Notes: generated by a model not told the origin, from the letters alone. Positions 4,339 to 47,999 are shown, counted from the stretch's first letter. The stretch: 48,342 nt of DNA from Candidatus Wildermuthbacteria bacterium RIFCSPHIGHO2_01_FULL_49_22b (GCA_001823165.1 MHTT01000008.1:1-48342), one strand, 5' to 3'. Translations and numbers: made by a program.

Positions 4339-4382
4339 ATATAGGGGAAACAGAGTCAGTAGATTAGAATATAATATAAAGC

Positions 4383-5099
4383 ATGCCAAGAACAAAACCA
4401 GAAAAGGGAAAAATCTACCATATTTTCAACCGTGGCGTAGAAAAGCGGAACATCTTTATATCCGAAGGAGATCGCTGGAGATTTTTGCAGGGGATGTATT
4501 TGTTTAATAATGAAGATTCCACCACAAATCTTCTCTATCGTCTTGAGCAAAGAAAGGGCAAGATGCATTTTGGCATCCTGCGAGATTATATGCAGCGAGA
4601 AGGCGTTAAGCGCAAGCCCTTGGTACGCATTATGGCAGATTGCCTTAAGCATAATCACTTTCATTTTAGCATTGAAGAAACTCAAGAAAACGGCATTTCC
4701 CGTTTTATGCAAAAGCTGGGTATTGGATATACAAAATATTTTAATAAAAAATATGAGCGCGTAGGACCGCTGTTTCAAGGAAAGTTTAAACTGGTAGAGA
4801 TACAAAGCGATGCGCAGCTTATGTATCTTATTGCCTATATTAATGCGATTAACCCCGGCCAAGAGTTAGAGCCAGAACTAAAATCAGTAGCGCAAGATCC
4901 AGAGCAAATCCTTGAGTTTATTCAACATTACCCATGGAGTACTCATTTGGAGTATTTGGGCAAAAGAGATTCTATTATTATAGATAAAGGTGTTGCGGGA
5001 GAATTATTTGGTACCCCAATTGCTTACCGAAAGTTTGTAGAAGATATTGTAAAAGGCAAAAAAAGTTTTGGTTTGTCAAAGAAAGATTTTCTTGAGTAG
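4383..5099 (+). CDS. IS200/IS605-like Y1 (HUH) transposase of the REP-associated RayT type (COG1943-like)
   Basis: YHIFNRGVEKRNIF N-terminus. HUH motif in CLKHNHFHFSI. GPLFQGKFK and the LIAYINAINP Tyr helix. HYPWSTHLEY tail. Flanked on both sides by the same palindrome doublets. Confidence 0.8.
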   Translation: MPRTKPEKGKIYHIFNRGVEKRNIFISEGDRWRFLQGMYLFNNEDSTTNLLYRLEQRKGKMHFGILRDYMQREGVKRKPLVRIMADCLKHNHFHFSIEETQENGISRFMQKLGIGYTKYFNKKYERVGPLFQGKFKLVEIQSDAQLMYLIAYINAINPGQELEPELKSVAQDPEQILEFIQHYPWSTHLEYLGKRDSIIIDKGVAGELFGTPIAYRKFVEDIVKGKKSFGLSKKDFLE

Positions 5100-5101
5100 T
5101 T

Positions 5102-5138
5102 CCTAAATCCGATTTAGTTTTACTAAATCGGATTTAGG
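5102..5138. repeat. REP-like palindrome doublet (family C) immediately downstream of the RayT-like gene
   Basis: cctaaatCCGatttag (5102-5117) and ctaaatCGGatttagg (5123-5138), in the same CCG-then-CGG order as the upstream doublet. Confidence 0.85.
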
Positions 5139-5153
5139 AGAATTAGGAGAATT

Positions 5154-5969
5154 ATGAGAGAAATTTTAGAAAAAGTAAAAAATGGGGTGCTGGACGCGGT
5201 ATTTCCGGCAACCTGCATGGGTTGCGGTAGAGAAGGAAAGTATATCTGCCAAAGGTGCGAAGGTTTTGTAAGCGAAGTTGCTTTCATCTGCCCAGTATGT
5301 GAACAGTCGAGTTTTGCCGGAGAGCGGCACCAAACCTGCAAATCGTTCTATGGTTTTGATGGTTTGGTAAGCATTTGGGAATACGAGGGGCTCATGAAGA
5401 GTTTACTGCATTATATAAAGTACAATGGCATTACCCATGCTGCCAAAGAAACCACGGAGCGCGCATTTGAGGTGATTGGGCGCGACAGAGAACGATTTGG
5501 CGCATTTTTATCTTTTTTGTTATCTCAAGATACTTTTGTGACGTATGTGCCCATGTTCAAGAAAAAAGAGAGAAAAAGAGGGTTTAACCAGGCGGAGATA
5601 CTTGCAAGAGAGCTTGGAAAAATAGCCGGGAAAGAAACTCTTTGCGCCTTAGAGAAGATACATGATACAAAACCGCAGGTTGAGCTGAAGAAAGAAGAAC
5701 GGCTGGTAATCGTACAAGGCGCCTTTCAGACAACATTGCCCGCCTTTGCCGACCTGCCTGCTGGCAAGGTGGGGGCTTTGGCGGGCAGGCAAATTACAAA
5801 TCCAGACAATCAATTATCAATGGTCAATCATCAATGGTCGGCACCGCAGAAAGTGGTGCTGGTAGATGACGTGTGGACCACAGGAGCTACCATGAAAGAA
5901 TGCTGCAGGGTTTTGAAAAGGGCTGGCGCCAAAGAAATATGGGGGCTTACTATCGCAAGAACCCCCTAA
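5154..5969 (+). CDS. comF: ComF-family protein (phosphoribosyltransferase-like competence protein) carrying a ~30-40 aa extra segment
   Basis: N-terminal CxxC...CxxC zinc finger. RGFNQAE, VQGAF and VVLVDDVWTTGAT PRTase motifs. SD aggaga lies 5 nt upstream of the ATG. Confidence 0.85.
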   Translation: MREILEKVKNGVLDAVFPATCMGCGREGKYICQRCEGFVSEVAFICPVCEQSSFAGERHQTCKSFYGFDGLVSIWEYEGLMKSLLHYIKYNGITHAAKETTERAFEVIGRDRERFGAFLSFLLSQDTFVTYVPMFKKKERKRGFNQAEILARELGKIAGKETLCALEKIHDTKPQVELKKEERLVIVQGAFQTTLPAFADLPAGKVGALAGRQITNPDNQLSMVNHQWSAPQKVVLVDDVWTTGATMKECCRVLKRAGAKEIWGLTIARTP

Positions 5970-6040
5970 ATTTTCAATCAATGACCCAATTTCACAATTT
6001 TTCAATTGAACATTAAAACATTGATAATTCATTGAAAATT
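5967..6040. repeat. AT-rich TIR-bounded miniature element (family E), copy 1. It fills the comF-dprA spacer.
   Basis: Begins taaattttcaat (the TAA is the comF stop) and ends cattgaaaatt. aaattttcaat and attgaaaatt are reverse complements. It shares the blocks cccctaaattttcaat, caatgacc.aattt and tgataatt...cattgaaaatt with 43185-43271. Confidence 0.7.
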
Positions 6041-6046
6041 AGTGTC

Positions 6047-6952
6047 ATGGCTGACAGTATAACTAAAGAAAGTCCTCGATACCCAACACTACTCGGTGAA
6101 CTTAGGGACGCGCCAAAGCAGCTGTATTATAGGGGAAATTGGGACGGGATTTTTTCCGTCGAAGGCGGATCCGCCTCTGGCGGAGAAAAATGCCTGGCGG
6201 TTGTAGGCACGCGGAGAATGACCAGCTATGGAAAGCGCATGACCGAGCAGATCGTGGGTGAGGTTGCTGCGGCCGGGGTGACCGTTGTTTCTGGTTTTAT
6301 GTACGGTATTGATGCTGAAGCCCACAAAGCAGCTTTGAGAGCCGGCGGCAAAACCATTGCCGTAATGCCCTGCGGAATTGACGTTGTGCACCCAGAATAT
6401 CAGGCGGACTTATATCAAGAGATTTTAGATACGGGCGGCTTAGTGGTTTCAGAATACGAAGGCACGCATCCTGCTTTGTATTGGACGTTTCCACGCCGAA
6501 ATCGCATTGTAGCAGGCCTTTCAAAGGCAACGCTGGTAGTGGAGGCCGGTGAAGACAGCGGAGCATTGATTACCGCAGACCTTGCTAAAAAATACGGCAG
6601 AAAACTCTTTGCCGTGCCAAATCCTTTAACGAGCGCGGTTTCGCAAGGAGTAACGCGGTTGCTAAAAGAGGGTGCAACGATTGCAAGCAGCGCAGACGAT
6701 ATTTTGAAGTATTTTGGGTTTCGTACGCGGAGTAGGGTCAGACCCTACTCGCAAGTAGGGTCTGACCCTACTCCGCAGATTGCAGGCGAACTTGAGCAAA
6801 AGATTATGCAGGTGCTTTTCAAGGAATCAATGCAGATTGACGCGCTTGCCAGAAAACTTAAGATACCGGCAGCGCAGCTGGGAGCCGCAATTTCCATGTT
6901 GCAGTTGGAAGGATGCATAACAGAAGAACAGGGCAAATTATATGTTGTTTAA
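6047..6952 (+). CDS. dprA: DNA processing protein DprA
   Basis: LAVVGTRRMTSYGKRMT, VVSGFMYGIDAEAHKAAL, FPRRNRIVAGLS and a C-terminal winged-helix-like tail. The ORF is open from TTG 6032 but ATG 6047 is the more likely start. Confidence 0.9.
   Translation: MADSITKESPRYPTLLGELRDAPKQLYYRGNWDGIFSVEGGSASGGEKCLAVVGTRRMTSYGKRMTEQIVGEVAAAGVTVVSGFMYGIDAEAHKAALRAGGKTIAVMPCGIDVVHPEYQADLYQEILDTGGLVVSEYEGTHPALYWTFPRRNRIVAGLSKATLVVEAGEDSGALITADLAKKYGRKLFAVPNPLTSAVSQGVTRLLKEGATIASSADDILKYFGFRTRSRVRPYSQVGSDPTPQIAGELEQKIMQVLFKESMQIDALARKLKIPAAQLGAAISMLQLEGCITEEQGKLYVV
6727..6776. repeat. Family B palindromic doublet translated in frame within dprA
   Basis: gcggaGTAGGGTCaGACCCTACtcgcaaGTAGGGTCtGACCCTACtccgc. 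It is two 8-bp-arm hairpin units and the whole 50-mer is nearly self-complementary. It encodes [17 protein letters not shown] in the linker between the Rossmann and winged-helix domains. Confidence 0.85.
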
Positions 6953-13230: not shown

Positions 13231-15552
13231 ATGAAACTCATTCTCTGGCTTGAAAGGATTTCAAAGGGAAGCTTGTACGCTGCGGTGCTTCTTTTGCCCC
13301 TTTGGTTTTTGCCCTTTACGCAGAATATGGTGATATACCAAAAGCAGACCCTGCTCTTGGTGCTGGTGTTTGTGGGGCTGGTTGCGTGGCTGGCCAAGGC
13401 GGTGAACCAAGGCGAGATTCGTCTTAGGCTCTCTCTGATATTTATTCCCGCCTTCCTCCTGCTTTTGGGCGCGGGGGTTTCCACCCTGCTTTCTCTGTGG
13501 GTTTCCTCCAGTTTCTGGGGCTGGCCCCTGGATGTTACCGACAGCTTCCTGACATTGGCCGCTTTCGTCCTGTTTTCCTTTTTGGCATTCCAGGTTGTCC
13601 AAGACCACAAGGAGCTGTTTCGTCTGCTCTTGGTCCTGCTGGTTTCCTCGGGGCTTGCCGCGCTGTATGCTTTGGCGCAGGTCTACGGGGCGTATGTCTT
13701 GCCCTTTGCCTTTGCGAAATCTTCTGTTTTCAACACCATAGGGAACAGCAATGATGTTTCCCTGTTTGCCGCCGTGCTTCTGCCTCTTGCCCTGGCCCTG
13801 GCATTTGTCGCAAAGCGGCAGCTTCGCTTGGCCCTATGGGTTGTAGCAGGTATATTATTGGCATGCGTTGTGCTCTTTAACTTTCAGACGGCCTGGATTG
13901 TTCTTATAGCAGGACTCTTGGTGCTTTTGGCTTTTGGCATATGGAACATGCAAAAGAGAGCCGAGTCGGGGTGGATTTCCTTTCCCATGGCCCTGATTAT
14001 TGCGGCCGTGTTCTTCCTGACATTTCAGGTTTCTCTGCCTGGAGCTCCCAAAGACCTGCCGGTTCAGGTTTCCTTGAGCCAGCGGGCAACGCTCAATGTC
14101 GCAAAAGACGTGCTTAAAGAACGGGCGCTCTTTGGAGGGGGTCCCGGAACCTTTTCCTTGGAGTATGCAAGGCACCGGCCAGCAGAGCTGAACCAGACCA
14201 TATTTTTTGGCACAAGGTTTGCCTCGGGCGCGACAGAATTGTTTGACTGGTTCGTGACCAAGGGAGCGGTCGGCTTGCTCTTGCTCCTGGCGCTTTTTGG
14301 GGTCTTAAAGGTGGTTGGAGCTAAATCCCTGGTGGATTTTCGGGGTGAAAAGGTTGTGTGGATGCTGCAGCTGGGAATCTTTGCCTCGCTTGTCGCCCTG
14401 GTGGTTTCCCAGTTTTTGTATCCTTCCTCCTTTCTGCTCTGGTTTGTCTTTTGGGTACTGGCTGCGGCCCTGGCGCTTAGCGCGGCCCCAAAGACCCTGC
14501 ACTTTACGGTTTCCACGTACCCGTTTCTTGCCTTAGCGTCTTCGTTCGTGTTCTTGGTTGTTTTTGTCTTTGGGCTCGGGCTCTTGTTTCTCGGAGGGCA
14601 AAAGTATGCAGCTGAAGTTCTGTACCTGCAGGGAGCAAAGGCCTCAGCGGCAGGGGATTTGCAAGGAGCCATTGCCAAGATTGGTTCTGCTGCCAACCTG
14701 AATGGCAGCGTTGATATCTACTGGAGGGACCTGGCCCAGCTGTACCTGCTCAAGATGAATCAGGTTGTTGGCGCCGCAGGCCTTTCTCAAGAGCAAAAAC
14801 AGCAGCAGACGCAGACAGCAATATCCAACGTGGTTAGAGCGGCCCGGGCCGCGACCAGCGCAGCTCCCGCAAACGTTGCAAACTGGAATGTGCAGGGATT
14901 TGTGTACCGTTCCCTCATTGGCATTCAGGGAGCGGAAGCGCTGGCGCAGGAGGCCTACCTGAAGGCGGCAGAACTGGAGCCAACTTCTCCTTTCCCTTGG
15001 ACCGAGCTGGCGCGTTCCCAGGTAATGCAGGCCAAGAACCTTGGCAGACAGCAAGGCGTTTCGCAGATTCAGGGCCAGATGCTGGAGAATGCCTTAGAAA
15101 ACCTGCAGAAGGCCTTGGCGTTAAAGTCCGACTATGCCCCGGCCCATTACCTTTTGGCCGTGGTGTATGAGCAACAGGGAAAGGTTGAAGAAGCCGTTGC
15201 CAAGCTTGAGGAAACAAAGCTCATTGCCCAAAACGACGTGGGCCTTGCCTTCCAGCTTGGAGTCATCTACTGGCAGCGCCAAGAATGGGATAAGGCGGCC
15301 CTAGAACTGGAACGCGCAAGAAGAATTAATCCCAACTATTCTAACGCAAGATACATTCTGGGTTTAGTGTATGATGTGAAAGGCAACAAGGAAGCGGCGC
15401 GCCAGGAGTTTTCTGCGGTCTGGCGCCTGAACCCCGACAATGAAGAGGTGCAGCGCATTCTGGAAAACCTGGAGCAGGGGCTCCCTGCTTTAGAGGGTAT
15501 TACTCCAGCACAACCTCCGGTGCAGGAAACTCCGCCTGAAATCCAGAAGTAA
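13231..15552 (+). CDS. Paralogous O-antigen-ligase-like (Wzy_C) membrane protein with C-terminal TPR repeats
   Basis: Same architecture as the preceding gene. LFGGGPGTFSLEYARHRP motif. TPR repeats (ALALKSDYAPAHYLLAVVY, ARRINPNYSNARYILGLVY, VWRLNPDNEEVQRIL). Confidence 0.8.
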   Translation: MKLILWLERISKGSLYAAVLLLPLWFLPFTQNMVIYQKQTLLLVLVFVGLVAWLAKAVNQGEIRLRLSLIFIPAFLLLLGAGVSTLLSLWVSSSFWGWPLDVTDSFLTLAAFVLFSFLAFQVVQDHKELFRLLLVLLVSSGLAALYALAQVYGAYVLPFAFAKSSVFNTIGNSNDVSLFAAVLLPLALALAFVAKRQLRLALWVVAGILLACVVLFNFQTAWIVLIAGLLVLLAFGIWNMQKRAESGWISFPMALIIAAVFFLTFQVSLPGAPKDLPVQVSLSQRATLNVAKDVLKERALFGGGPGTFSLEYARHRPAELNQTIFFGTRFASGATELFDWFVTKGAVGLLLLLALFGVLKVVGAKSLVDFRGEKVVWMLQLGIFASLVALVVSQFLYPSSFLLWFVFWVLAAALALSAAPKTLHFTVSTYPFLALASSFVFLVVFVFGLGLLFLGGQKYAAEVLYLQGAKASAAGDLQGAIAKIGSAANLNGSVDIYWRDLAQLYLLKMNQVVGAAGLSQEQKQQQTQTAISNVVRAARAATSAAPANVANWNVQGFVYRSLIGIQGAEALAQEAYLKAAELEPTSPFPWTELARSQVMQAKNLGRQQGVSQIQGQMLENALENLQKALALKSDYAPAHYLLAVVYEQQGKVEEAVAKLEETKLIAQNDVGLAFQLGVIYWQRQEWDKAALELERARRINPNYSNARYILGLVYDVKGNKEAARQEFSAVWRLNPDNEEVQRILENLEQGLPALEGITPAQPPVQETPPEIQK

Positions 15553-18700: not shown

Positions 18701-18997
18701 CTGGGAGGGAAAGCGCAGTTTGGAGGACAGCGGTTCGGGGAAATGGAGGTGTGGGCGCTGGAAGGATACGGGGCCTCTCACATCCTCCAGGAAATGCTTA
18801 CCATCAAGTCAGACGATGTTCCGGGAAGGGCAGCCACGTATGAAAGCATCCTGCGGGGACAGCCCATTCAAACCCCCAACCTGCCTGCCTCCTTTTCGCT
18901 TTTACTTGCTGAATTGAGGTCGCTTGGCCTTAACATTGAAGTAAAGGAGACGCAACGGGCGGAAAGAAAACAAGAAGACGAAAGAGAAAAATCCTAA
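15764..18997 (+). CDS. rpoB: DNA-directed RNA polymerase subunit beta
   Basis: Full-length conserved RpoB (FMDNENPLAELEHKRRVSATGPGGL, NMQRQAVPL, GRHGNKGVIS, GGQRFGEMEVWALEGYGA). The ORF is open from TTG 15746 and ATG 15764 is preferred. Confidence 0.97.
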   Translation: MPVPQPSFKNFGKSGVHFPLPYLLQVQQDSWSQFWRGDFKELLQEISPIYDHTKKEFELWFVDFKLGEPNYATDLEAKENDDSFEAPLRVKVRLVNLKTKEQKEQEIFLTDFPLMTERGTFIINGVERVAISQLIRSPGAFFTGQEAKVTRKLFGAKIIPNRGAWLEFETENSGFIGVRIDRKRKAPATTLLKAFGLETEEAIQSAFSDVDKGSVSYIAETLKKDTAKGQGEALMEIYRRLRPGDYVTPDTAKELIGNMFFNFERYDLSRVGRWKTLQRLPALKNPKSKTEEEVSLKDRVLKLEDIIEVLREIIRLNNAPGAVPDQIDHLGNRRVRTFAEFLQNRLRVGFMRMERIVKDRMSTLDASMLTPAQLVNPRPVMAMVKEFFTSSQITQFMDNENPLAELEHKRRVSATGPGGLTRERAGFEVRDVQPSHYGRICPIQTPEGPNIGLVGHMASYARINSYGFLETPYFEVRKEKVTERIKYLNAFEEEQEVIAHAGIPLDAKGAIIPDKVEARVRGEAGMAAKKDVTYIDVGPEQSISVATALIPFLRNDDANRALMGSNMQRQAVPLLRAESPLVGTGLEEKVAKDSGLAVVAQEDGVVKEVDARHITVKPATEKSHTYELKNFVRTNQYTSFHQRPIVDVGQKIKKGQVIADGGAIDQGRLALGTNLLVAFISWRGGNYEDAIILSERLVKDDRYTSIHIEDFVADIRETKLGPELTTSDIPNVGEEKLKDLDEEGVVRAGAEVGPNDILVGKISPKGEADLTSEERLLRAIFGEKARDVKDSSLLMPHGKRGRVVSVKVFERVQGHKLEPGVIKRIHVEVAELRKVQPGDKLAGRHGNKGVISFVLPEEDMPFMEDGTPVDIVLNPLGVASRMNIGQILETHLGWAAKKQGYFALTPGLAGANEKDIKAELKAAGLPEDGKVTLFDGRDGTSFPQKITVGMIYMMKLIHMVEDKIHMRSIGPYSLITQQPLGGKAQFGGQRFGEMEVWALEGYGASHILQEMLTIKSDDVPGRAATYESILRGQPIQTPNLPASFSLLLAELRSLGLNIEVKETQRAERKQEDEREKS

Positions 18998-19085
18998 GAA
19001 ATCCTAAATCCGATTTAGAGAAATCCTAGATTTAGTAAGAAATCCTAAATCCGATTTAGTAAGAAATCCTAAATCCGATTTAGAA
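18988..19085 (+). repeat. Tandem array of family C REP-like palindromes in the rpoB-rpoC spacer
   Basis: cctaaatccgatttag at 19003-19018, 19044-19059 and 19068-19083, with a degenerate copy at 19024-19035, at ~24-nt period (aagaaatcctaaatccgatttagt). All are in the CCG orientation. The rpoB TAA stop (18995-18997) lies in a partial unit aaatcctaag. Confidence 0.85.
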
Positions 19086-19125
19086 ATTTTAGAAATTAGA
19101 ATTTAGAGTTTTAGTTTTAGCATAC

Positions 19126-22100
19126 ATGAGGGTAACCGATTTAGAATCCATTCGAATAAAGCTCGCCTCCCCGGACAACGTTTTGGCGTGGTCTCACGGG
19201 GAGGTTACGAAGCCCGAAACCATCAACTACCGCACCCAGCGCGCGGAAAAGGAAGGTTTGTTTGACGAGCGCATCTTTGGTCCGGAAAAGGACTATGAGT
19301 GCTATTGCGGCAAGTACCGCAAGATACGCTACAAGGGCGTGGTGTGCGACCGGTGCCAAGTGGAGGTGACCAAATCCTCGGTGCGCCGCGAGCGCATGGG
19401 CCACATCAAGCTGGCCTCGCCCTGCTCGCACATCTGGTTTCTGCGGGGGGTGCCCTCGCGCATGGGCCTTGTTTTGGATATTCCTTCTGGCGCCTTGGAG
19501 CGCGTCATCTACTTTGCCTCGTATATCATCACCAAGGTGAACGAGGAGGCAAAAGCCAAGGCCGCAGACGAGATTGAGGCGGAATTCAAGCAGAAATTCA
19601 AGAACAAGGGAGAAGAAGAAAAGCAGCAGCTCAAGGGAGCGCGCGACCGGGCCAGAGAAGAGCTCAAGCTCCTCCAGCCCTTGAAAATCCTTTCTGAAGC
19701 AGAGTATCAGAACCTTTCTTTAAAGTACGGCCAGGCCTTTGAGGCGGGAACCGGAGCTGGAACCCTAAGAAAAATATTTCAAGAAGTGGATTTAAAGAAG
19801 CTTCTCAATCAGGTAAAAAAAGACCTGGAAAAGGCGAGTTTGGTGACGAAACGAAAACTCTTGGTCAGGATGCGACTGCTGCAGGGAATGCTGGAGTCCT
19901 CTATTCGCCCCGAATGGATGTTTTTCACCCACTTGCCTGTTCTTCCTCCCGACCTGCGTCCCATGGTGCAGCTGGACGGGGGAAGGTACGCTTCCTCTGA
20001 CTTAAACGACCTGTACCGCAGGGTGATTAACCGCAACAACCGCTTAAAGTATCTGCTGGAAATTGAGGCCCCGGACGTGATTGTGCGCAACGAGAAGCGC
20101 ATGCTGCAGGAAGCCGTGGACGCCCTGATTGACAACTCTATGAGAAAAGGACAACTCACGTCAGCTACCACGGGAGGAAGGCGCCTGTTAAAGTCCCTAG
20201 CGGACATGCTCAAGGGAAAGCAGGGACGGTTCCGCCAGAACCTGCTGGGAAAGCGTGTGGACTACTCGGGGAGGTCGGTCATTGTGGTGGGTCCCACCAT
20301 GAGTTTGAAGAACGTGGGACTGCCAAAGCGCATGGCCCTGGAGCTGTTTAAGCCCTTTGTGATTCAAAAAATCCTTGAACGGGAGTTTGCCTTCAATGTC
20401 CGGGGAGCAAATCGGCTTATTGAACAGGAAACCAACGATGTATGGGCGATTTTGGAAGAGGTTGTCGCAGAAAGAATGGTGCTCTTGAACCGCGCGCCGA
20501 CTCTTCACCGCTTGGGCATCCAGGCCTTTTACCCGCAGCTCGTGGAAGGGGAGGCCATCCGCCTGCATCCTCTGGTGTGCTCCGCCTTCAACGCGGACTT
20601 TGACGGAGACCAGATGGCCGTCCATGTGCCTCTGTCCAAAGAGGCCCAGGAAGAGGCCAGAAACCTGATGCTGTCGGCAAACAATCTGTTAAAGCCCGCC
20701 ACGGGAATCCCGGTGGCCGGTCCCCGCCAGGATATGGTGCTCGGCTGCTATTACTTGACCGGCGCAGACAAAAAACCGCAGGAACAAAAGAAGAGTTTTT
20801 CGTCTCCGCAGGAGGTCCTGCTTGCCATGGAAGCCGGGGCTGTCGGGTTGCGGGACGCCATACGGGTGCGTATGCCAAAGACCTGGGGAGGGGACGGTAT
20901 TTCTCTTGCGGAAACCACGCCAGGCCGCCTCATTTTCAACGAGTCCTTGCCTTCCGGGTTCCCGTTTGTCAACGAACAGATTACCGCAAAAAGAATGGAA
21001 CGCCTGGTGGCGGATATTATTAAGCATTATCCTGCCGAGGAGGCCCCCGGCATGTTAGACAAAATCAAGGAGCTGGGATTTGAATATGCGACCAAGTCCG
21101 GAATCACTTGGGGCATGGATGATCTGACGGTCCCGGAAGAAAAGAAAGAGCTGCTGGGGCAAGCTGCGCAAGAGATTGAAGTCATTGATTCCCATTTTGC
21201 AAGGGGATTGCTTTCCAAGGAGGAGAGGTCGGCTAAGGTCATTGAAATCTGGCAGCGGGTGAAGTCCGCGGTGGAAAAACTCGTGCCGAAATCCCTGCCT
21301 GAAGGCGGTTCGGTCTTTTCCATTATTGACTCCGGGGCAAGGGGTTCTTGGTCCCAGCCCGTGCAGATGGCGGGCATGAAGGGCTTGGTGATTAACCCGG
21401 CAGGCCGCATTATTGAGCTGCCCGTCAAGAGTTCTTTCAAGGAAGGGTTTGACGTACTGGAGTACTTCATTTCCACGCACGGGGCAAGAAAGGGAACCGC
21501 GGACACCGCCTTGAGAACGTCCACGGCAGGGTATCTTACCCGCCGTTTGATTGACGTTGCCCATGACGTGCTGGTAACCTTGCATGACTGCAAAGACACG
21601 GCGGGCATCGTCATTACCAAGGCCGTGGCCCAAGAGCTGGGCCAGAACATTGCTTTAAAGCTTGCTGGCAGGATTTCCCTGCAGGACCTGAAAGGAATTG
21701 TGAAGAAAGGAGGGTACATTGATTGGGACAAGGCCCAGGCAATTGGAGAAGACGAGAAGGTAAAGGAGGTGTGGGTACGCTCGCCTTTGTCGTGCCGCGC
21801 GGTGCGGGGAGTGTGCCAGCTGTGCTACGGATGGGATATGGGCAGGAACAGGGAGATTGAGCTGGGAGCGGCTGTTGGCATCGTGGCGGCCCAATCCATT
21901 GGAGAGCCGGGAACGCAGCTTACCATGAGAACATTCCACACGGGAGGGGTTGCTGGAGGAGGCGACATTACCCAGGGACTTCCCCGCGTAGAGGAAATCT
22001 TTGAAGGAAGGGTTCCGAGCGGCAAGGCCGTCTTATCAGAGCTTGCAGGGAAAGTGGTTGAGATAACTCCAGAGGGCGCGGTGAAGATACAAGCAACAAT

Positions 22101-22716
22101 TGACAATTTACAATTGACAATTGACAAGAAGAATAGTCGTCAAAAGTCAAAAGTCAAGAGTCAAGAGTCAATCGTGGAATACCAGATTCCCGCAAAGCGG
22201 GCTTTGTGGGTAAAGCTTGGAGACCAGGTCGTGAAAGGGCAGCAACTGTGCGAAGGGCACCCGGACCTTCAAGAGATATTTTCCCTCACCGGAAAGGACG
22301 GCGCGGCGTCTTATATCGTCAGAGAAGTGCAAAGTATTTACACTTCCCAGGGCGCTTCCATCCACGACAAGCATATTGAGACCATAGCGCGCCAGATGTT
22401 TTCCCGCATCAGAATCAAGGATGCGGGAGACGCCGCCTTCACGGAAGGGGAAGTGGTAGAAAGGGCCGTATTTCTGGAAGAAAACGCCAAGGTCAAGAAG
22501 CTTTCAAAGAGAGGAGCCGTGGGCTCCCAGCTTCTCTTGGGCATTTCCAAAATTGCCCTCACCACGGACAGCTTTCTGTCCTCGGCCTCGTTCCAGGAAA
22601 CCTCCCGCGTTTTGATTAAGGCCTCTCTGGAAGGCAAGGAAGACCGCCTGCGGGGTCTGAAAGAAAACGTGATTATCGGGAAGCTTATTCCTGCGGGAAC
22701 CGGGTTCAAGAAATAA
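19126..22716 (+). CDS. rpoC: DNA-directed RNA polymerase subunit beta-prime
   Basis: Zn-finger CYCGKYRKIRYKGVVCDRCQVEV, catalytic NADFDGDQMAVHVPLS, trigger-loop region GEPGTQLTMRTFHTGG and C-terminal ASFQETSRVL. Confidence 0.97.
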   Translation: MRVTDLESIRIKLASPDNVLAWSHGEVTKPETINYRTQRAEKEGLFDERIFGPEKDYECYCGKYRKIRYKGVVCDRCQVEVTKSSVRRERMGHIKLASPCSHIWFLRGVPSRMGLVLDIPSGALERVIYFASYIITKVNEEAKAKAADEIEAEFKQKFKNKGEEEKQQLKGARDRAREELKLLQPLKILSEAEYQNLSLKYGQAFEAGTGAGTLRKIFQEVDLKKLLNQVKKDLEKASLVTKRKLLVRMRLLQGMLESSIRPEWMFFTHLPVLPPDLRPMVQLDGGRYASSDLNDLYRRVINRNNRLKYLLEIEAPDVIVRNEKRMLQEAVDALIDNSMRKGQLTSATTGGRRLLKSLADMLKGKQGRFRQNLLGKRVDYSGRSVIVVGPTMSLKNVGLPKRMALELFKPFVIQKILEREFAFNVRGANRLIEQETNDVWAILEEVVAERMVLLNRAPTLHRLGIQAFYPQLVEGEAIRLHPLVCSAFNADFDGDQMAVHVPLSKEAQEEARNLMLSANNLLKPATGIPVAGPRQDMVLGCYYLTGADKKPQEQKKSFSSPQEVLLAMEAGAVGLRDAIRVRMPKTWGGDGISLAETTPGRLIFNESLPSGFPFVNEQITAKRMERLVADIIKHYPAEEAPGMLDKIKELGFEYATKSGITWGMDDLTVPEEKKELLGQAAQEIEVIDSHFARGLLSKEERSAKVIEIWQRVKSAVEKLVPKSLPEGGSVFSIIDSGARGSWSQPVQMAGMKGLVINPAGRIIELPVKSSFKEGFDVLEYFISTHGARKGTADTALRTSTAGYLTRRLIDVAHDVLVTLHDCKDTAGIVITKAVAQELGQNIALKLAGRISLQDLKGIVKKGGYIDWDKAQAIGEDEKVKEVWVRSPLSCRAVRGVCQLCYGWDMGRNREIELGAAVGIVAAQSIGEPGTQLTMRTFHTGGVAGGGDITQGLPRVEEIFEGRVPSGKAVLSELAGKVVEITPEGAVKIQATIDNLQLTIDKKNSRQKSKVKSQESIVEYQIPAKRALWVKLGDQVVKGQQLCEGHPDLQEIFSLTGKDGAASYIVREVQSIYTSQGASIHDKHIETIARQMFSRIRIKDAGDAAFTEGEVVERAVFLEENAKVKKLSKRGAVGSQLLLGISKIALTTDSFLSSASFQETSRVLIKASLEGKEDRLRGLKENVIIGKLIPAGTGFKK
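22097..22172 (+). repeat. Family A heptamer-array hairpin element translated within rpoC
   Basis: caa TTGACAA TTTACAA TTGACAA TTGACAA gaagaat agtcgtc AAAAGTC AAAAGTC AAGAGTC AAGAGTC aat, encoding TIDNLQLTIDKKNSRQKSKVKSQES. Homologous to 36963-37036 and to the reverse complement of 34589-34662. Confidence 0.85.
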
Positions 22717-26169: not shown

Positions 26170-26292
26170 AGATTTTACTGCGTAAAAGAAATTACAAATT
26201 CAAAGCACCAAATTCCAAACGCTTTTGGTTTGTGATTTGTGGTTTTGGTCATTGTAATTTGTTTGTAGTTTGGAATTTGTAATTTGTGATTT
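26170..26292 (-). repeat. Family F intercistronic element (ssb-rpsR spacer)
   Basis: The reverse complement is colinear with the groES-groEL spacer. It has a CA-rich tract (aaatcacaaa...), then gcgtttggaatttggtgct(t/g)tgaatttgtaatttcttttacg(c/a)agtaaaa directly before the ATG. Inverted termini are aaattacaaattc.../...tttggaatttgtaattt. Confidence 0.8.
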
Positions 26293-34040: not shown

Positions 34041-34382
34041 TTAGATCTTGCCTTTGCTAAACAGGGAAAGCACGATAAGCACTGCTGCGACCGCAAACCC
34101 CGTCAGCGCAAGAGACGTGAGGTTGGGAATGGTGAGCTCGGGAAAGAATATGTCCAGCGCCCATACGGCGGAAAAAACCAGGGCCAAGAGAACCGCGAGC
34201 TTCACAATCAAGGAAAAAAGATTCAGTAAGGGGCGCGCCACAGCCAGAATGATACCAAGAATGAGCCCCGCAATCAAGAAGTTTTTCAGCTCCCCCGTAA
34301 AATCCACTCCCGGCACGAACTCTGTTGCAATCCAAAGGCCGGCCAATCCCGCGAGCAGAGAGAGAACAATGGTATGAAGCAT
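34041..34382 (-). CDS. Four-TM membrane protein, DUF360/phage-holin-4-like family
   Basis: 113 aa and entirely hydrophobic helices. Its start overlaps the uvrC stop (TAATG), implying translational coupling. Confidence 0.6.
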   Translation of the reverse strand: MLHTIVLSLLAGLAGLWIATEFVPGVDFTGELKNFLIAGLILGIILAVARPLLNLFSLIVKLAVLLALVFSAVWALDIFFPELTIPNLTSLALTGFAVAAVLIVLSLFSKGKI

Positions 34383-35788
34383 TAAGATAGCGTACCCCGC
34401 TTTTGAGATTTGGTCAATCCGAGGACTTGTTCCCTGAGCTTTCGATGGTAAGAAATGGCAAAGCGGTGCGCTTCGTCCCTGATATGGAGAAACAGATTCT
34501 CAAGGGGCCTCGGCAGGTCTCTCAAAAGCACTGGTCTTGATTTGCCGGGAAAGAACAGCTCGTTTTGTTTTTTTGCCAGTGCCACCATGATTGACTTTTG
34601 ACCTTTGACTTTTGACGATTGACTTTTTTTGCTGTCAATTGTCAATTGTGAATTGCCAATTGTTAGCTCCCGCAGCGCAGAGAGCGCTGCGGTGAGCTGC
34701 CCCTTTCCTCCGTCAATGACCATGAGCTGGGGATAGGGCCATTCGGGGTGCCGGAGACGCCTTGAGAGAAGTTCTTCCATCATAGCATAATCATTTGATT
34801 TACCAGATATGCGAATCTTGTACTTTCTATAGGATTCCTTGAGAGGGGCCCCTTTAAGAAAGGTAACCTGGGAACCTGTTGCTTGTTTCCCTTGGATGTT
34901 GGAGATGTCATAGGCCTCCATGCGGGAGATTCGTTTTCTTGTTTCAAAGAGCTTCTGGAGTTCCTTTTCTATGAGGTTCCAGTTGGTGGAGGGCGCGGTC
35001 TCGCGGGAAAGGAGCCGCGCATGAGAAACAATGCGCTCTAAAGCGAGAAATTGATCTCTCAATCCTGCTGCTTTTTCAAAACCCTGATTCTTTGCGGCCT
35101 CGTTCATTTCTTTTTTCAGTTGTCTGAAAACCGAGGTTCTCTTTCCTTTGAGGACGGCGGCAAGTTTGCGCAGGTTCTTTTTGTATGTTTTCTCATCTGG
35201 GTCGGGTCCCGGGCAGAGATTGAGCTGGCACCAGGAGCAGGGAAGGGAGCCGTGCTTTTTTGCCGTGTAATAGGGGAATACCCTCCGAAGCAATCTCAAT
35301 ACCCGCCTGATTGCCTTTCCTTCCGTGAAAGGGCCAATATAGTTTGTATCTTGTATTTTGTATCTTGTATTTTGTATTTTTTTCTCCTTTTTCATACCAG
35401 ATACCAGATACGAGCTACAAGATACAAGGCGGGGCTGATGCGTCAAAAAGATTCTCGGAAGTTTATCTTTTGTTATTCCAACAAAAAAATACCCCTTGTC
35501 GTCTTTCCACATGACGTTGTATTTGGGCTGCAGCTTCTTTATGAGCTGCGACTCCAGCAACAAGGCATCAATTTCAGATTGAGTTTCAAGATATCCTACC
35601 CTGGTTACTTGGGATGTGAAAAGATTGTCCCGGTAGCTGGGCTGGGCAAAGTGGATTCTGACCCGGTCTTTGATATTCCCCGCCTTTCCTATATACAGCA
35701 CCGCTTTGGGAGAAGCCAAAGCATACACCCCGGGTGCTTTTGGAAGGGTTGAGAGTTTTGATTTGGGAACATACCGAAACTTTTCCAT
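34382..35788 (-). CDS. uvrC: Excinuclease ABC subunit C, short form (no C-terminal HhH2 domain), carrying two in-frame repeat insertions
   Basis: GIY-YIG (GVYALASPKAVLYIGKAGNIKDRV), UVR domain (EMNEAAKNQGFEKAAGLRDQFLALERI) and endonuclease V-like domain ending IRDEAHRFAISYHRKLR. ATG 35788 fits the canonical N-terminus, but the frame stays open to TTG 36091. Confidence 0.9.
   Translation of the reverse strand: MEKFRYVPKSKLSTLPKAPGVYALASPKAVLYIGKAGNIKDRVRIHFAQPSYRDNLFTSQVTRVGYLETQSEIDALLLESQLIKKLQPKYNVMWKDDKGYFFVGITKDKLPRIFLTHQPRLVSCSSYLVSGMKKEKKIQNTRYKIQDTNYIGPFTEGKAIRRVLRLLRRVFPYYTAKKHGSLPCSWCQLNLCPGPDPDEKTYKKNLRKLAAVLKGKRTSVFRQLKKEMNEAAKNQGFEKAAGLRDQFLALERIVSHARLLSRETAPSTNWNLIEKELQKLFETRKRISRMEAYDISNIQGKQATGSQVTFLKGAPLKESYRKYKIRISGKSNDYAMMEELLSRRLRHPEWPYPQLMVIDGGKGQLTAALSALRELTIGNSQLTIDSKKSQSSKVKGQKSIMVALAKKQNELFFPGKSRPVLLRDLPRPLENLFLHIRDEAHRFAISYHRKLREQVLGLTKSQKRGTLS
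34589..34662 (-). repeat. Family A heptamer-array hairpin element translated within uvrC
   Basis: The coding strand reads caa TTGGCAA TTCACAA TTGACAA TTGACAG caaaaaa agtcaat cGTCAAA aGTCAAA gGTCAAA aGTCAAT cat, encoding TIGNSQLTIDSKKSQSSKVKGQKS. Confidence 0.85.
35344..35428. repeat. Family G heptamer-array hairpin element translated within uvrC
   Basis: The plus strand reads TTGTATC TTGTATT TTGTATC TTGTATT TTGTATT tttttctcctttttc ATACCAG ATACCAG ATACGAG CTACAAG ATACAAG. ttgtat and atacaa are reverse complements. It encodes the extra segment ...LVSCSSYLVSGMKKEKKIQNTRYKIQDTNY.... Confidence 0.8.
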
Positions 35789-36091
35789 GAGTATAGTATA
35801 TCTGCTTTGCGGAGTTGCGTCTAAAAAAAAGTGTCCTGAAGCGCTTGGCTCAGGACACAGGAACAGCAGGACACAGAAACAAGGATGGTATGGCCCTAGT
35901 TTATTATGATTGGCAGAGCAGATGCTCCTTGCTGCCGTAAGGCCAAGGAAGCATCCGGCAAGGCCCAGAACCAGGGTTGAGACAACGATGGAGGTCTGGC
36001 TGGGTCCTTGGGGAAGAAGGGATACCAGGATGCCAATTCCTGCACCCAGCAACCCTCCGATTATGATAATGATGCCGAATATCTTATCCAA
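35789..36091 (-). CDS. SD-led two-TM ORF segment in frame with uvrC. It is either a separate small membrane protein whose stop is missing or frameshifted, or an N-terminal membrane anchor of UvrC.
   Basis: TTG start at 36091 preceded by gaAGGAGGaatc (SD 5 nt upstream). Translation is MDKIFGIIIIIGGLLGAGIGILVSLLPQGPSQTSIVVSTLVLGLAGCFLGLTAARS, then low-quality Cys-rich sequence across the terminator hairpin. TAA TAA and TAG occur in the other two frames right after TM2. Confidence 0.35.
35823..35858 (-). terminator. Rho-independent terminator-like hairpin on the minus strand, between the upstream 2-TM ORF segment and the uvrC ATG
   Basis: The minus strand reads GTGTCCTGA-gccaagcgct-TCAGGACAC followed by TTTTTTTT. 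Confidence 0.55.
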
Positions 36092-36229: not shown

Positions 36230-39157
36230 ATGGCACAGGATTTCATTAAAATCAGGGGAGCACGGGTTCACAACCTCAAGAACATTGACGTTGATATCCC
36301 CAAGGGCAAGCTTGTGGTGATTACCGGGCTTTCCGGGTCAGGGAAAAGCTCTCTTGCCTTTGATACTCTGTATGCTGAAGGACAGAGAAGGTACGTTGAG
36401 AGTTTGTCCGCATACGCGCGGCAATTCCTGGGCGTCATGCAAAAGCCCGATGTGGATTCCATTGAGGGCATTAGTCCTGCCATTGCCATTGACCAGAGAA
36501 AGGGAGCTCACAACCCTCGTTCTACCGTTGGGACCATTACGGAGATATATGACTATCTCCGTCTTTTGTTTGCAAGGATAGGAGTTCCGCACTGTCCCAA
36601 CTGCGGCAGGGAAGTCAAGCGCCAGTCGGTTTCCTCCATTGCAGACCAGGTGCAGAAACTTCCCGCCAAAGACGAGATTGCCATTCTTGGTCCTGTAATC
36701 AGGGAGAAAAAAGGGGAGCACCGGGGAGTTTTAGAAGAAATCCAGCGTTCCGGGTTTGTGAGGGCTCGCATTGACGGCATTGTGGAGCGCGTTGAAGAGG
36801 CCCTGGAAAAGGAGTTGGACCGCAAAAAGAAGCATTCCATTGAAGTGCTCGTGGACCGGCTAACCATAGACAAGGATCTGGACCGCCCCCGCCTCATCGA
36901 TTCTTTAGAGACCGCCTTAAAGCTTGGGAAAGGGCTGGTGATTGTGCGGGCACAGTCACCAACAATTGACAATTCACAATTAACAATTAGCAAGAAGAAT
37001 CGTCGTCAAAAGTCAACAGTCAATAGTCAAAAGTCAGGAGAAGACCTGGTCTTCAGCGAGCGCTTTGCCTGCGAGCAATGCAGTATTTCCCTGCCAGAGA
37101 TTGAGCCGAGAATGTTTTCTTTCAACTCTCCCTTTGGGGCGTGTCCTGCGTGCCAGGGATTAGGAGAAAAGCTGGAGGTTGATCCCAAACTGGTGATTCC
37201 CAACCCCCGGCTTTCCCTTGCCGAGGGCGCCATTTTCCCCTGGGCGCACGCTTCCCATAAGATAGGACGCCAGGGATTCTTTTGGTGGAAACTGGAAGAC
37301 CTGGCGAAAGAAAGGAAGTTTTCTTTGAATACTCCAGTAGAGGAGCTTTCTCCTAAAGTCATTAGCCTGGTCTTGCAAGGAGATAGAGGGTTTGCCGCCC
37401 GCAGAAGCGGGCGAGCCTCACCCGCCTCTGAAGAGGCGAGGTGGGAAGGAGTGATTCCCTGGCTGGAACGAAGATACCATGAGACCGACTCTGAATACGC
37501 CAGGGAAGAGATTGAGCAGTATATGATAGAGCGCTTGTGCGAAATGTGCCAGGGAAAGAGGTTGAAACCCGAGGTGGTGGCGGTAACCGTGGGGGCAAAG
37601 TCCATTCACGGGGTCGTAAACCTGCAGCTCAACCGCGTCAAAGAGTTTTTTGGCAAACTCTTCTTGAAAGAGCATGAGAAAAAGATAGCAAGCCCCATTG
37701 TAAAAGAGATTGTGAATCGCCTTCAGTTTTTAATTGATGTGGGCTTGGAGTATCTCACCCTGGCGAGAAAAGCCGCGACCCTGTCAGGAGGAGAAGAACA
37801 GAGAATACGGCTCGCCACCCAGATTGGCTCAAAGCTTACTGGGGTCTTGTACATATTGGACGAGCCCTCTGTCGGTTTGCATGCCAGAGACCAGCATCGC
37901 CTCATTGCGACCTTGCAGCAATTGCGCTCTTTGGGCAATACCATTGTAGTAGTAGAGCATGACCCCCAAACCATACGGTCAGCTGACTGGGTGGTGGATA
38001 TTGGCCCTGGAGCAGGAAAGCACGGGGGCCGTGTCACTTTTACCGGAACGCCAAAACAGCTGCTCAAGTCGCGCACACTTACCGGAGATTACCTAGCGGG
38101 GCGCAGAACTGTTCAGATAAGCAAAGTAGGGTCAGACCCTACTCGGGTGAGTAGGGTCAGACCCTACTCACAGCTGATTGTCCAGGGGGCAACGCACAAC
38201 AACTTAAAGAACATTGACGTTGCAATACCGCTGGAAAGGATGGTGTGCGTGACCGGGGTTTCAGGGTCTGGCAAAAGTTCTCTGGTCAGCGATATTGTGG
38301 CAAAAGCCCTGCTGCAGAAGTTCTACAGGGCAAAGGAAGAACCGGGAGAGCATAAGGCAATTTTAGGCACGGAGCATCTTAACAAGGTGGCGCTGGTGGA
38401 CCAGTCGCCCATTGGCAGAACTCCGCGTTCCAACCCCGCAACCTACACAGGGTCCTTTTCTGTCATACGGGATTTGTTTGCTTTATGCAAAGAGGCCAGG
38501 GTGCGGGGCTACAAGCCGGGAAGATTTTCTTTTAATGTAAAGGGAGGAAGATGCGAGTCCTGCGAGGGCCAGGGGCTAAAAAAGATTGAGATGTACTTTT
38601 TACCGGACGTGTATGTGGAGTGCGAGGAATGCCAGGGACAGCGATACATGAAAGAGGTCCTGGAGGTGGAATACCGAGGCAAAAACATTGCCCAGGTTCT
38701 GGCAATGACCGTGGAGGAAGCCCTGGCGTTTTTCAGAAACATTCCCGCCCTGACAGCGAAGTTGAAGACCTTAAACGACGTGGGACTCTCGTATGTGGAG
38801 CTGGGACAGCCCGCCCCCTCCCTTTCTGGGGGAGAGGCCCAGCGAGTAAAGCTGGCAACCGAGCTTGCAAAGAAAGCAACAGGAAAGACCCTGTACATTC
38901 TAGACGAGCCAACCACGGGTCTTCATTTTGACGACGTGAAAAAACTGCTTCAGGTGTTGGGGGAACTGACGGACAAGGGAAACACGGTATTGATTATTGA
39001 GCACAATCTTGATGTGGTGCGCAATTCGGACTGGATTATTGACCTGGGACCAGAGGGAGGAGAAAAAGGGGGGAAATTGGTCGCAGAGGGAACCCCAAGA
39101 GATGTTGCCAAAATAAAAAAGAGCTATACGGGGCAGTACTTGCGTAAGTTCAGCTGA
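36230..39157 (+). CDS. uvrA: Excinuclease ABC subunit A, carrying two in-frame repeat insertions
   Basis: Two ABC modules ([51 protein letters not shown]), zinc modules (CPNCG, CEQC...[12 protein letters not shown]...CEECQGQRY), 975 aa. Confidence 0.97.
36963..37036 (+). repeat. Family A heptamer-array hairpin element translated within uvrA
   Basis: caa TTGACAA TTCACAA TTAACAA TTAGCAA gaagaat cgtcgtc AAAAGTC AACAGTC AATAGTC AAAAGTC a, encoding [25 protein letters not shown]. Confidence 0.85.
38125..38168. repeat. Family B palindromic doublet translated within uvrA
   Basis: aGTAGGGTCaGACCCTACtcgggtgaGTAGGGTCaGACCCTACt, encoding [17 protein letters not shown]. These are the same two peptide readings as in dprA but in swapped order. 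Confidence 0.85.
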
Positions 39158-39816: not shown

Positions 39817-41586
<1,770 letters not shown>

Positions 41587-42281: not shown

Positions 42282-43187
42282 GTGAATATCTACTCGCACG
42301 CTGAAGCAAACACAAGAAAAACATGGTTGTACCTTCTGGGGTTTTTTGTCTTTGTGGTTGCGATTGGCTGGTTCATGAGTTATGCCTTAGGCAGTCAGGT
42401 CATCTTGTGGATTGCGGTTGGTTTGAGCATTGTCATGAGCTTTGGTTCTTTTTGGTATTCAGACAAACTGGTGCTGTCTTTATCGCATGCAAAACCCATT
42501 GAGAAGAAAGATGCCCCCGAATTGTACCGTATGGTGGAGAATTTGAGCATCACGGCAGGACTGCCAACGCCGCGAGTATTCATTATCCAGGACGCGCAGC
42601 CCAACGCTTTTGCAACAGGCAGGGACGCAAAGCACGCCGTGGTGGCAGTAACCACGGGTTTGTTCAGTCGTTTGGAGCGCACCGAGCTGGAAGGAGTGCT
42701 TTCCCACGAACTCTCCCACATTGGCAACAAGGATATGCTGGTTTCCACGGTTGTGGTGGTTTTGGTTGGCGTGGTGGTTTTGCTTGCAGATCTTTTCTTT
42801 CGCCTTGCCTATTTTGGAGGCATGGGAGGGCGAAGCGATAGAGGAGGAGGGCAGGCAAGGATCGCGCTCATTCTGATTGCGCTCGCCTTCCTTATCCTGG
42901 CCCCCATGCTGGCCCAGGCAATGAAGTTTGCCATTTCCCGGAAACGCGAGTTTCTGGCCGACGCTTCCGGAGCCCTTCTCACAAGGTATCCTGAAGGCCT
43001 GGCCTTGGCCCTAGAAAAGATTTCAAGCGACCCGCACCAGTTAAAATCCGCCAACGACGCCACCTCCCATCTATATATTGCAAATCCGTTTAGGGGCAAA
43101 GAGCAGAAGAGCTGGATTCACAAACTATTCATGTCGCATCCGCCGGTAGAGGAGCGCGTCAAGGCATTGCGCGGTATGCGCCCCTAA
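42282..43187 (+). CDS. htpX: M48-family zinc metalloprotease HtpX
   Basis: GTG start, HELSHI zinc motif, four TM helices, EFLADASGALLT, SHPPVEERV. Confidence 0.93.
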   Translation: MNIYSHAEANTRKTWLYLLGFFVFVVAIGWFMSYALGSQVILWIAVGLSIVMSFGSFWYSDKLVLSLSHAKPIEKKDAPELYRMVENLSITAGLPTPRVFIIQDAQPNAFATGRDAKHAVVAVTTGLFSRLERTELEGVLSHELSHIGNKDMLVSTVVVVLVGVVVLLADLFFRLAYFGGMGGRSDRGGGQARIALILIALAFLILAPMLAQAMKFAISRKREFLADASGALLTRYPEGLALALEKISSDPHQLKSANDATSHLYIANPFRGKEQKSWIHKLFMSHPPVEERVKALRGMRP

Positions 43188-43271
43188 ATTTTCAATTATC
43201 AATTTCCAATTTTTAATCAAACCCCAATGACCAAATTTTTAAACAGTCTGATAATTGAAGCATTGAAAATT
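43185..43271. repeat. AT-rich TIR-bounded miniature element (family E), copy 2
   Basis: It starts at the htpX TAA (cccctaaattttcaat...) and ends ...cattgaaaatt. It shares blocks with 5967-6040. Confidence 0.7.
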
Positions 43272-43303
43272 CACTGAAGATTGAGAATTGCAAATTGAGA
43301 ATT

Positions 43304-47714: not shown

Positions 47715-47999
47715 TCCGCGGTAGCTCAGCTGGTAGAGCGGCTCGCTGTGAGTAAAGTTGCAGCTTCTTGGAGCAATCCAGGTTGAAAAACGGGGTTAAT
47801 TGCGGGAAACCTAAAGCGAAAGCCAAGGCAATCCGCAGCCAAGGGATGTAACATTTTGCCTTGCAAAATTGTACGTTCAAGGTTCAGAGACTATACGCCC
47901 CGCACCCCTTTGGGGTGATGAGATAGTCCACGCCAGTATGAAAGTATTGGGTTGCGTGTAACGAGATGGTCGTAGGTTCGAATCCTACCCGCGGAGCCA
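47715..47999 (+). tRNA. tRNA-Asn(GUU) interrupted in the anticodon loop by a group I intron. Exons are 47715-47749 and 47959-47999 (CCA encoded).
   Basis: The spliced product is UCCGCGG UA GCUC AGCUGGUA GAGC G GCUCG CUGU|UAA CGAGA UGGUC GUAGG UUCGAAU CCUAC CCGCGGA G CCA. U1-A72, G73 and overall similarity to bacterial tRNA-Asn support the call. One 27-43 mismatch. Confidence 0.85.
47750..47958 (+). ncRNA. Group I self-splicing intron (209 nt, tRNA-intron/IC3-like, no ORF)
   Basis: The canonical core elements are all present: P aattgcgggaaa (~47798), Q aatccgcagc (47830-47839), R gttcagagacta (47882-47893) and S agatagtcc (47921-47929). P1 pairs exon gcugU (47745-47749) with IGS Gcagc (47760-47764), giving a U-G wobble at the 5' splice site. 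The intron ends in G (47958). Confidence 0.88.

Follow-up and report, generated by a model that had tools for sequence, protein, structure and literature searches.

Candidatus Wildermuthbacteria bacterium RIFCSPHIGHO2_01 (Parcubacteria, within the Candidate Phyla Radiation (CPR); groundwater, Rifle aquifer) carries a short hairpin-forming repeat, here called Family A, inside three housekeeping genes. Records of the UvrC, UvrA, and RpoC proteins give this organism as their source, and its genome encodes OHA65988, OHA65989, and OHA65975. The DNA analysed is one stretch of 48,342 nt (the window), in which three copies of Family A are known, one each in rpoC, uvrC, and uvrA; all copy counts below refer to this window. 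The repeat is real and its copies are homologous, exactly one of the six possible reading frames is open in each copy and is the one used by the host gene, and this reading frame is intact across strains, with one deletion variant described below. We consider it probable (roughly 0.7) that Family A is a selfish hairpin repeat, comparable to the Rickettsia palindromic elements (RPEs) and to the intragenic repetitive extragenic palindromes (REPs), which is tolerated only in its open frame at permissive loops, and that the frame shared by the copies reflects survivorship and not directed insertion.

Three copies of Family A and their single open frame

Each copy is 76–79 nt long and consists of approximately four heptamers of the TTGACAA type, a spacer of 8–11 nt, and approximately five heptamers of the GTCAAAA type, the two arrays being inverted relative to each other. 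Pairwise identity among the copies is 79–87%, and in each arm of each copy Tandem Repeats Finder detects a period of 7 with 4.4–5.3 units. The element ends in ATTGAC...GTCAAT and is made up entirely of the two inverted arrays, without distinct terminal inverted repeats plus a unique core; CGTC is present in all three copies, in an internal position at the head of the right arm. Copies 1 and 3 have in common the non-repetitive spacer AAGAAGAAT[A/C]GTCGTC, and the spacer of copy 2 differs from theirs in length by exactly 3 nt, so that the reading frame is kept. An nhmmer model built from the three copies matched them with E values of 1e-19 to 1e-23 and found no fourth copy in the window, where the core pattern of the family occurs 13 times versus 1.4 times expected in shuffled sequences. 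The GC content of the copies is 32%, compared with 47–54% in the host genes.

Copy 2, read on the minus strand from 34664 to 34589, begins with AACAA, followed by the left-arm heptamers, the spacer CAAAAAAA, and the right-arm heptamers listed in Table 1; in the uvrC open reading frame (ORF) its translation stands in the context ...LSALRELTIGNSQLTIDSKKSQSSKVKGQKSIMVALAKK. An earlier note on this DNA, made from the sequence alone, had quoted both the nucleotide sequence and the peptide of this copy, and the two agree exactly with the minus strand and the uvrC ORF. The same note had regarded the uvrC element as one of three copies that are in sense orientation and use one and the same frame of the element, which is indeed the case for all three. 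The peptides that they encode are alike, approximately 25 residues long, hydrophilic, rich in Lys, Ser, and Gln, and of net positive charge; their intact frames suggest that the copies are translated.

The shared frame can be traced to the stop codons of the heptamers. Because TTGACAA holds a TGA and the 7-nt period shifts the frame with each unit, three perfect heptamers close all three frames, and the antisense right arm, (TTTTGAC)n, likewise closes all three. The six-frame stop check that the earlier note had named was run on each copy and on an idealised element. Exactly one frame per copy was free of stops, namely the frame used, while the remaining five frames, two sense and three antisense, contained 1–4 stops in each copy and the idealised element had a TGA in all six. 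Heptamer 2 is the only unit whose TGA would hit the used frame; it reads TTTACAA in rpoC (TTA, Leu) and TTCACAA in uvrC and uvrA (TCA, Ser). Family-A-like hairpins were also found in intergenic positions of two other metagenome contigs, L170 (4459-4523; 46 bits, the best match outside the window) and L150 (2446-2519), and both have stops in all six frames.

The copies lie on the +, −, and + strands over 15 kb and follow the strand of their genes. Three random insertions would share one of the six configurations with a probability of (1/6)^2, approximately 0.03. The earlier note had called the agreement unexpected by chance if insertion orientation were random and had proposed two causes for it, a strong purifying filter or a strand-specific insertion mechanism. 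Since each copy has one stop-free frame, the filter by itself suffices to explain why copies in essential genes agree in orientation and frame. No strand-specific mechanism has to be invoked. One coupled to transcription may still play a part; control of orientation by replication direction was rejected, because copies on the +, −, and + strands that follow gene strand exclude a replication-linked strand bias.

A single strand of Family A is predicted to fold into an imperfect hairpin in which 5-bp TTGAC/GTCAA helices alternate with 2x2 mismatches. Folding is much more favourable for the antisense strand (−23 to −26 kcal/mol) than for the sense strand (−5.6 to −19 kcal/mol), with z scores of the predicted hairpins of −5.9 to −6.6 on the antisense strand of all three copies and of −3.3 to −3.8 on the sense strand of copies 1 and 2; the sense hairpin of copy 3 has decayed (−5.6 kcal/mol, z = −0.3). 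According to these folding models, the stronger U-rich hairpin in the mRNA of antisense insertions may add to the filter besides the stops. Copies 1 and 3 differ at 8 nucleotides, with 1 synonymous and 7 non-synonymous differences, and this excess of non-synonymous differences, together with the decayed sense hairpin of copy 3, suggests that neither the peptide nor the mRNA hairpin is constrained. The copies are probably close to selectively neutral.

The same 22 kb was recovered in four independent assemblies with 99.8–99.99% identity and with the copies unchanged except for one deletion variant; an assembly artefact was therefore rejected. An intron or intein was rejected as well, since Rfam contains no family matching the element, with no match at E <= 1 in 34480-34780, and 25 residues are too short for an intein. 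The uvrC ORF of 569 aa in the public record (34382-36091, minus strand) is an over-extension of the gene listed in Table 1: strain contigs separate an upstream ORF of 89 aa, hydrophobic in nature, from uvrC, and a terminator-like hairpin is located at 35858-35831.

Table 1. Family A copies, the parts of copy 2, and the host genes in the window
Feature	Coordinates	Strand	Description
rpoC	19126..22716	+	RNA polymerase beta'; host of copy 1
Family A copy 1	22095..22173	+	in rpoC; RpoC residues 991-1015, TIDNLQLTIDKKNSRQKSKVKSQES
uvrC	34382..35788	-	468 aa; true start ATG at 35786-35788; host of copy 2
Family A copy 2	34589..34664	-	in uvrC; UvrC residues 376-399 (TIGNSQLTIDSKKSQSSKVKGQKS) and the next Ile
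Copy 2, left arm	34632..34659	-	four heptamers TTGGCAA TTCACAA TTGACAA TTGACAG
Copy 2, heptamer 2	34646..34652	-	TTCACAA; a perfect TTGACAA here would place TGA in the reading frame
Copy 2, spacer	34624..34631	-	CAAAAAAA; 8 nt, 3 nt shorter than the spacers of copies 1 and 3
Copy 2, right arm	34589..34623	-	five heptamers GTCAATC GTCAAAA GTCAAAG GTCAAAA GTCAATC
uvrA	36230..39157	+	host of copy 3
Family A copy 3	36961..37036	+	in uvrA; UvrA residues 245-269

Insertion sites and strain variation

Alignment with solved homologues of UvrC, UvrA, and the beta' subunit places all three inserts in loops, and comparison with related sequences shows the insert to be lineage-specific in uvrA and rpoC. 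In three of four syntenic relatives, whose UvrA proteins are 80–84% identical, the UvrA site is empty (VINSKGGDQLF versus VRAQSP-[25 aa]-GEDLVF here), and at this position, where the UvrB-binding domain ends, the protein of G. stearothermophilus has 5 residues against 31 in the present UvrA. The UvrC insert corresponds to a loop of the endonuclease domain, flanked by the DGGxGQ helix and the vGLAKK strand, that has 4 residues in T. maritima versus 24 here. For RpoC, the nearest representatives have no Family A insert and the alignment with B. subtilis beta' shows a gap of 18 residues; alignment positions in E. coli would put the insert at a hairpin tip of the jaw region. The AlphaFold model of UvrC (mean predicted local distance difference test score (pLDDT) of 80.6) shows the insert as a low-scoring loop, at approximately 47–58, between a confident helix and a confident strand, with flanks above 90 on both sides.

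Among approximately nine strain-level variants of UvrA and UvrC, the element is intact and its frame open in nearly all, and no length variants of a single unit were found among these sequences. The exception is L195 (ERZ27254767; 99.8% identical over 22 kb), in which four heptamers (28 nt) between two GTCAATC units of uvrC have been cleanly deleted; the deletion is equivalent to window positions 34589-34616 and is the sole indel in 22 kb. It shifts the frame of uvrC upstream of the conserved IRDEAHRFA segment, which is lost, and the gene call, with the over-extended start of the 569-aa ORF, is 513 aa long. The loss of exactly four heptamers suggests that the arrays are prone to slippage.

Origin of the shared frame and orientation

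The favoured explanation can be set out as follows. A short, AT-rich, non-autonomous dispersed repeat would be pasted into unrelated loci of the Wildermuthbacteria genome, the copies probably having arisen by transposition-like copying between loci. Within essential genes, a copy would persist only if it landed in sense orientation and in the single stop-free frame, added a multiple of three nucleotides, and fell in a surface loop able to tolerate approximately 25 extra hydrophilic residues; a surviving copy would then be transcribed and translated as part of RpoC, UvrC, or UvrA.

Such a course of events has parallels. RPEs (RPE-1 and other families; Ogata et al. 2000/2002), in-frame repeats reviewed in PMC10969869, are also dispersed palindromic repeats that lie in frame in unrelated, apparently functional housekeeping genes, where each copy yields a conserved peptide apparently compatible with the fold of the host protein (surface or loop), and their hosts likewise have reduced genomes and a host-dependent lifestyle. 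Family A is set apart from them by description and not by sequence: RPEs (RPE-1 to RPE-10) measure approximately 100–150 bp and belong to Rickettsiales/Alphaproteobacteria, whereas Family A measures 76–79 nt, is built of tandem 7-nt units, and belongs to CPR/Patescibacteria. Intragenic REPs tagged with GTAG/CGTC are stem-loops within ORFs that encode 20–30 residues and are concentrated in uvrA/B/C/D, recBCD, and polymerase genes, both uvrA genes of Opitutus terrae bear such inserts, and a RAYT-type transposase (REP-associated tyrosine transposase) has been proposed as their mobiliser (Di Nocera et al. 2013, PMC3733652). Like them, Family A is a small hairpin repeat in uvr genes, and the window also has a RAYT-like gene and GTAG-type dimers in uvrA and dprA. 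Unlike REPs, which are 20–40 nt long with a single stem of 5–13 bp and a terminal GTAG/CGTC tag, Family A forms a long composite hairpin of repeated 5-bp helices, has its CGTC inside, and does not flank the RAYT gene.

Tandem repeats of heptanucleotides are also known in cyanobacteria as short tandemly repeated repetitive (STRR) sequences. TAACTGA heptanucleotide repeats have been reported from Beggiatoaceae, Cyanobacteria, and Bacteroidetes (MacGregor 2015, PMC4679880). They resemble Family A as short tandem 7-nt arrays with a broad and patchy distribution, of which three units stop every frame and allow no read-through in one orientation, and one of them lies inside an ORF similar to RNA polymerase beta'. 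However, they are direct arrays found mostly just upstream of start codons, whereas Family A is an inverted bipartite unit that can be copied and is intragenic in 3/3 copies. The RU/ERIC repeats of enterobacteria, which are similar to MITEs (miniature transposable elements with inverted repeats), include intragenic cases (Delihas 2007, PMC2759123) and share with Family A a small size, mobility, and an open frame, with occasional in-frame fusions to host genes, but they are larger (103–168 bp), lie mostly between genes, and possess defined terminal inverted repeats. As regards the target-site duplication characteristic of MITEs, the three Family A junctions showed no consistent direct repeat. 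Coding palindromes of Nematomorpha mitochondrial genes (PMC6649704) are another example of inverted repeats embedded in conserved protein genes and translated, although these are organellar, long, and perfect and form no dispersed repeat family.

Several observations weigh against this explanation. The copies are only three and all come from the 48-kb window, within which no mobilising enzyme could be linked to Family A and no parent insertion sequence with matching ends was detected. The three junctions revealed neither a consistent target-site duplication nor a conserved target sequence, the only direct repeat being AGTCA at copy 3, itself part of a heptamer. In relatives, the uvrC and uvrA loops that hold Family A here are occupied by unrelated heptamer or hairpin inserts, which could mean site targeting and not a pure filter. 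The hosts are all DNA-binding enzymes and the peptide is basic, so that a selected function could be involved, and the case for translation is drawn from the intact frames.

Targeting is at the centre of an alternative that we regard as unlikely, namely that a single-stranded DNA form of the element is inserted by an HUH/Y1 enzyme, preferentially where the non-template strand of a transcribed gene is exposed or where a hairpin already exists, with the orientation and the recurrent sites both being consequences of this preference. A suitable enzyme may be at hand. The window contains a RAYT-like Y1/HUH transposase gene at 4383-5099 (+), which scores 25.4 bits against Pfam Y1_Tnp (cut-off of 23), matches NCBIfam REP_Tyr_transpos weakly, and encodes the HUH motif HNHFHF, the Tyr motif YTKYFNKKYERVGPLFQGKF, and YTKYFN..GPLFQGKF; a search of PDB sequences with the protein gave no match. 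Inverted CTAAATCCGATTTAG hairpins on both sides of the gene (4298-4337 and 5101-5139) complete a REP-RAYT (REPtron) arrangement in a CPR genome, and a relative (L199) has a similar RAYT-like gene at 14231-14788. Single-strand hairpin transposition is thus plausible in the present genome. The lack of target-site duplications would fit as well, as these are also absent in the IS200/IS605 family, and so would the much better folding of the antisense strand.

The recurrent use of the same loops points in the same direction. At the Family A site of uvrA, L199 (GCA_027624865.1, uvrA 3279-6248) has an unrelated (AATCACA)n array with a AATCAGCATCAATCAG duplication, encoding HKSQITNHKQITNPKTQNTNNKSASISRNQHQSAA, and in seven relatives the uvrC loop holds either nothing or one of various inserts (small double hairpins, a nested GC hairpin, a plain heptamer array, or a further heptamer hairpin); some of the inserts at the two loops are apparently nested. 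However, the palindrome that flanks the RAYT gene, CTAAATCCGATTTAG, is different and is not Family A, the 5' flanks of the three copies have no conserved target tetranucleotide in common, and orientation does not track replication direction. Moreover, the stop-codon filter already explains the frame, which no mechanism acting at the DNA level could.

A benefit of the peptide itself is distinctly unlikely in our estimation. It would imply that the basic 25-residue loop has been kept because it helps DNA-binding enzymes, for example through extra non-specific contacts with DNA. RpoC, UvrA, and UvrC all bind DNA, the net charge of the peptide is positive, the element is fixed in all strain variants, and Di Nocera et al. 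(PMC3733652) consider coincidence an improbable cause for the clustering of intragenic REPs in uvrABCD and replication genes. Evidence to the contrary comes from the predominance of non-synonymous substitutions between copies 1 and 3 (7/8), the lack of the insert in close relatives with otherwise very similar UvrA proteins, the low confidence of the modelled region, which is consistent with a disordered loop, and the unrelated sequences that fill the same loops in relatives.

Slippage of the arrays may be given a regulatory role, in that it would toggle uvrC or uvrA and give rise to transient mutator subpopulations; since the 7-nt unit is not a multiple of three, slippage would switch the frame. 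The L195 allele provides an example of such a frameshift. But it is one variant in approximately nine and may reflect faulty assembly or a rare null allele, the arrays are short (4–5 units) and imperfect, changes by a single unit are absent from the strain-level sequences, and the dispersed homologous copies would be left unexplained; we consider phase variation very improbable. Growth of low-complexity loops in situ by replication slippage, without any copying between loci, has in its favour that period-7 arrays, of many different sequences, are a common feature of this genome and its clade, in loops as well as spacers, and that (ACAATTN)n arrays occur in many phyla. Nevertheless, the copies share arm order, unit number, the heptamer-2 variant, and a non-repetitive spacer, which independent slippage would not reproduce; the common spacer in particular led us to reject this origin, to which we assign next to no probability. 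A broader scheme, which is quite unlikely in our view, would combine several of these ideas: heptamer-array hairpins would be widespread mobile single-stranded DNA elements that an HUH/RAYT-type enzyme of CPR bacteria re-inserts in the same hairpin-bearing loops of repair and transcription genes, and their slippage-prone 7-nt unit would turn uvrC and uvrA into an on-off mutator switch in genome-reduced symbionts.

If Family A is indeed a selfish repeat retained by survivorship, it extends the known range of selfish DNA within protein-coding genes, so far represented by RPEs and intragenic REPs, to the CPR and to a paired 7-nt-array architecture, and it illustrates neatly that the content of stop codons is by itself enough to impose a common frame and orientation. 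Palindromic repeats within uvrABC genes have precedents in other phyla; what appears to be new is the CPR host and the heptamer-array architecture, and full-text literature searches yielded no account of elements of this sort in CPR. In CPR, conserved proteins such as RpoC, UvrA, UvrC, and DprA bear loops derived from repeats, and such loops inflate apparent protein divergence, give false "novel insertions" in CPR proteins, and can break alignments and gene calls. Such inserts also mark sites prone to slippage, of which the frameshifted uvrC allele is a natural example. Given that unrelated repeats recur at the same loops of uvrC and uvrA, and that intragenic REPs have been reported as enriched in uvrABC genes, the question arises whether permissiveness or targeting is responsible.

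Other repeats in the window and in relatives

The host genes of Family A and their surroundings bear several further repeats. In uvrC, a second and unrelated heptamer hairpin, (TTTGTAT)n / (ATACCAG)n, is located at 35343-35427 (minus strand) and corresponds to UvrC residues 122-149 (VSCSSYLVSGMKKEKKIQNTRYKIQDTNY), of which residues 122-144 have AlphaFold pLDDT values below 50. In uvrA, a GC-rich, hairpin-forming in-frame insert of a different type is present at 37391-37441 (minimum free energy of −39 kcal/mol) and is not found in any of four relatives. The GTAG-type palindrome dimers mentioned above (GAGTAGGGTCAGACCCTACTC x2) are at 38125-38168 in uvrA and at 6727-6776 in dprA, both translated in frame; in L199 this uvrA site holds a member of the same family, and further GC-rich hairpins (minimum free energy of −60 kcal/mol) are present as well. 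Upstream of rpoC, the rpoB-rpoC spacer (18983-19107) contains three tandem copies of the REP hairpin that flanks the RAYT-like gene (AAATCCTAAATCCGATTTAG), followed by a period-7 array (TTAGAAA) that reaches the start of rpoC.

Period-7 sequences are present elsewhere in the window. Two copies of 116 nt that are rich in them (26173-26288 and 39831-39946), 86% complementary and thus inverted, are situated in the spacers between the convergent recA and ssb genes and between groES and groEL, and intergenic arrays occur at 19089-19107, 26262-26292, 39839-39930, and 43187-43303. When 19 orthologue groups were compared with four relatives, lengths differed by 7 aa or more at 14 sites, and several of these are period-7 arrays or strong hairpins. 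At 47718-47998 (+), a group I intron (47740-47950; Rfam RF00028, 92.5 bits) splits a tRNA gene in its anticodon region, and the split tRNA is not called by ARAGORN.

Wider searches were carried out with several patterns. A scan of GTDB genome contigs with ACAATTNNCAATTNACAATTNNCAA, an over-general pattern, returned at least 120 loci (L001-L120), and the source genome was not among the matches listed. These matches include (ACAATTN)n arrays, often (ACAATTA)n with up to approximately 15 units, from Cyanobacteria, Bacteroidota, Chloroflexota, Planctomycetota, Acidobacteriota, and CPR; most are intergenic, and at some loci (L039, L092, L097, and L114) they are paired in inverted orientation across a short core. 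The right-arm pattern TCGTCAAAAGTCAANNGTCAA detected 73 loci in metagenome contigs, mostly intergenic (GTCAAAA)n arrays or other hairpins, and no true Family A copy among them. Pattern scans of viral contigs gave no matches, and a protein-database search with the concatenated element peptides (78 aa) gave none at E <= 10, probably as a result of composition bias at that database size. In many unrelated metagenome contigs (L133, L140, L141, L145, L146, L153, L157, L159, L160, L164 with two sites, L167, L174, L180, and L191), the conserved motif ACTAGTACCGC(N2-3)GCGT directly precedes TCGTCAAAAGTCAAAAGTCAA arrays and looks like the end of a distinct repeat element.

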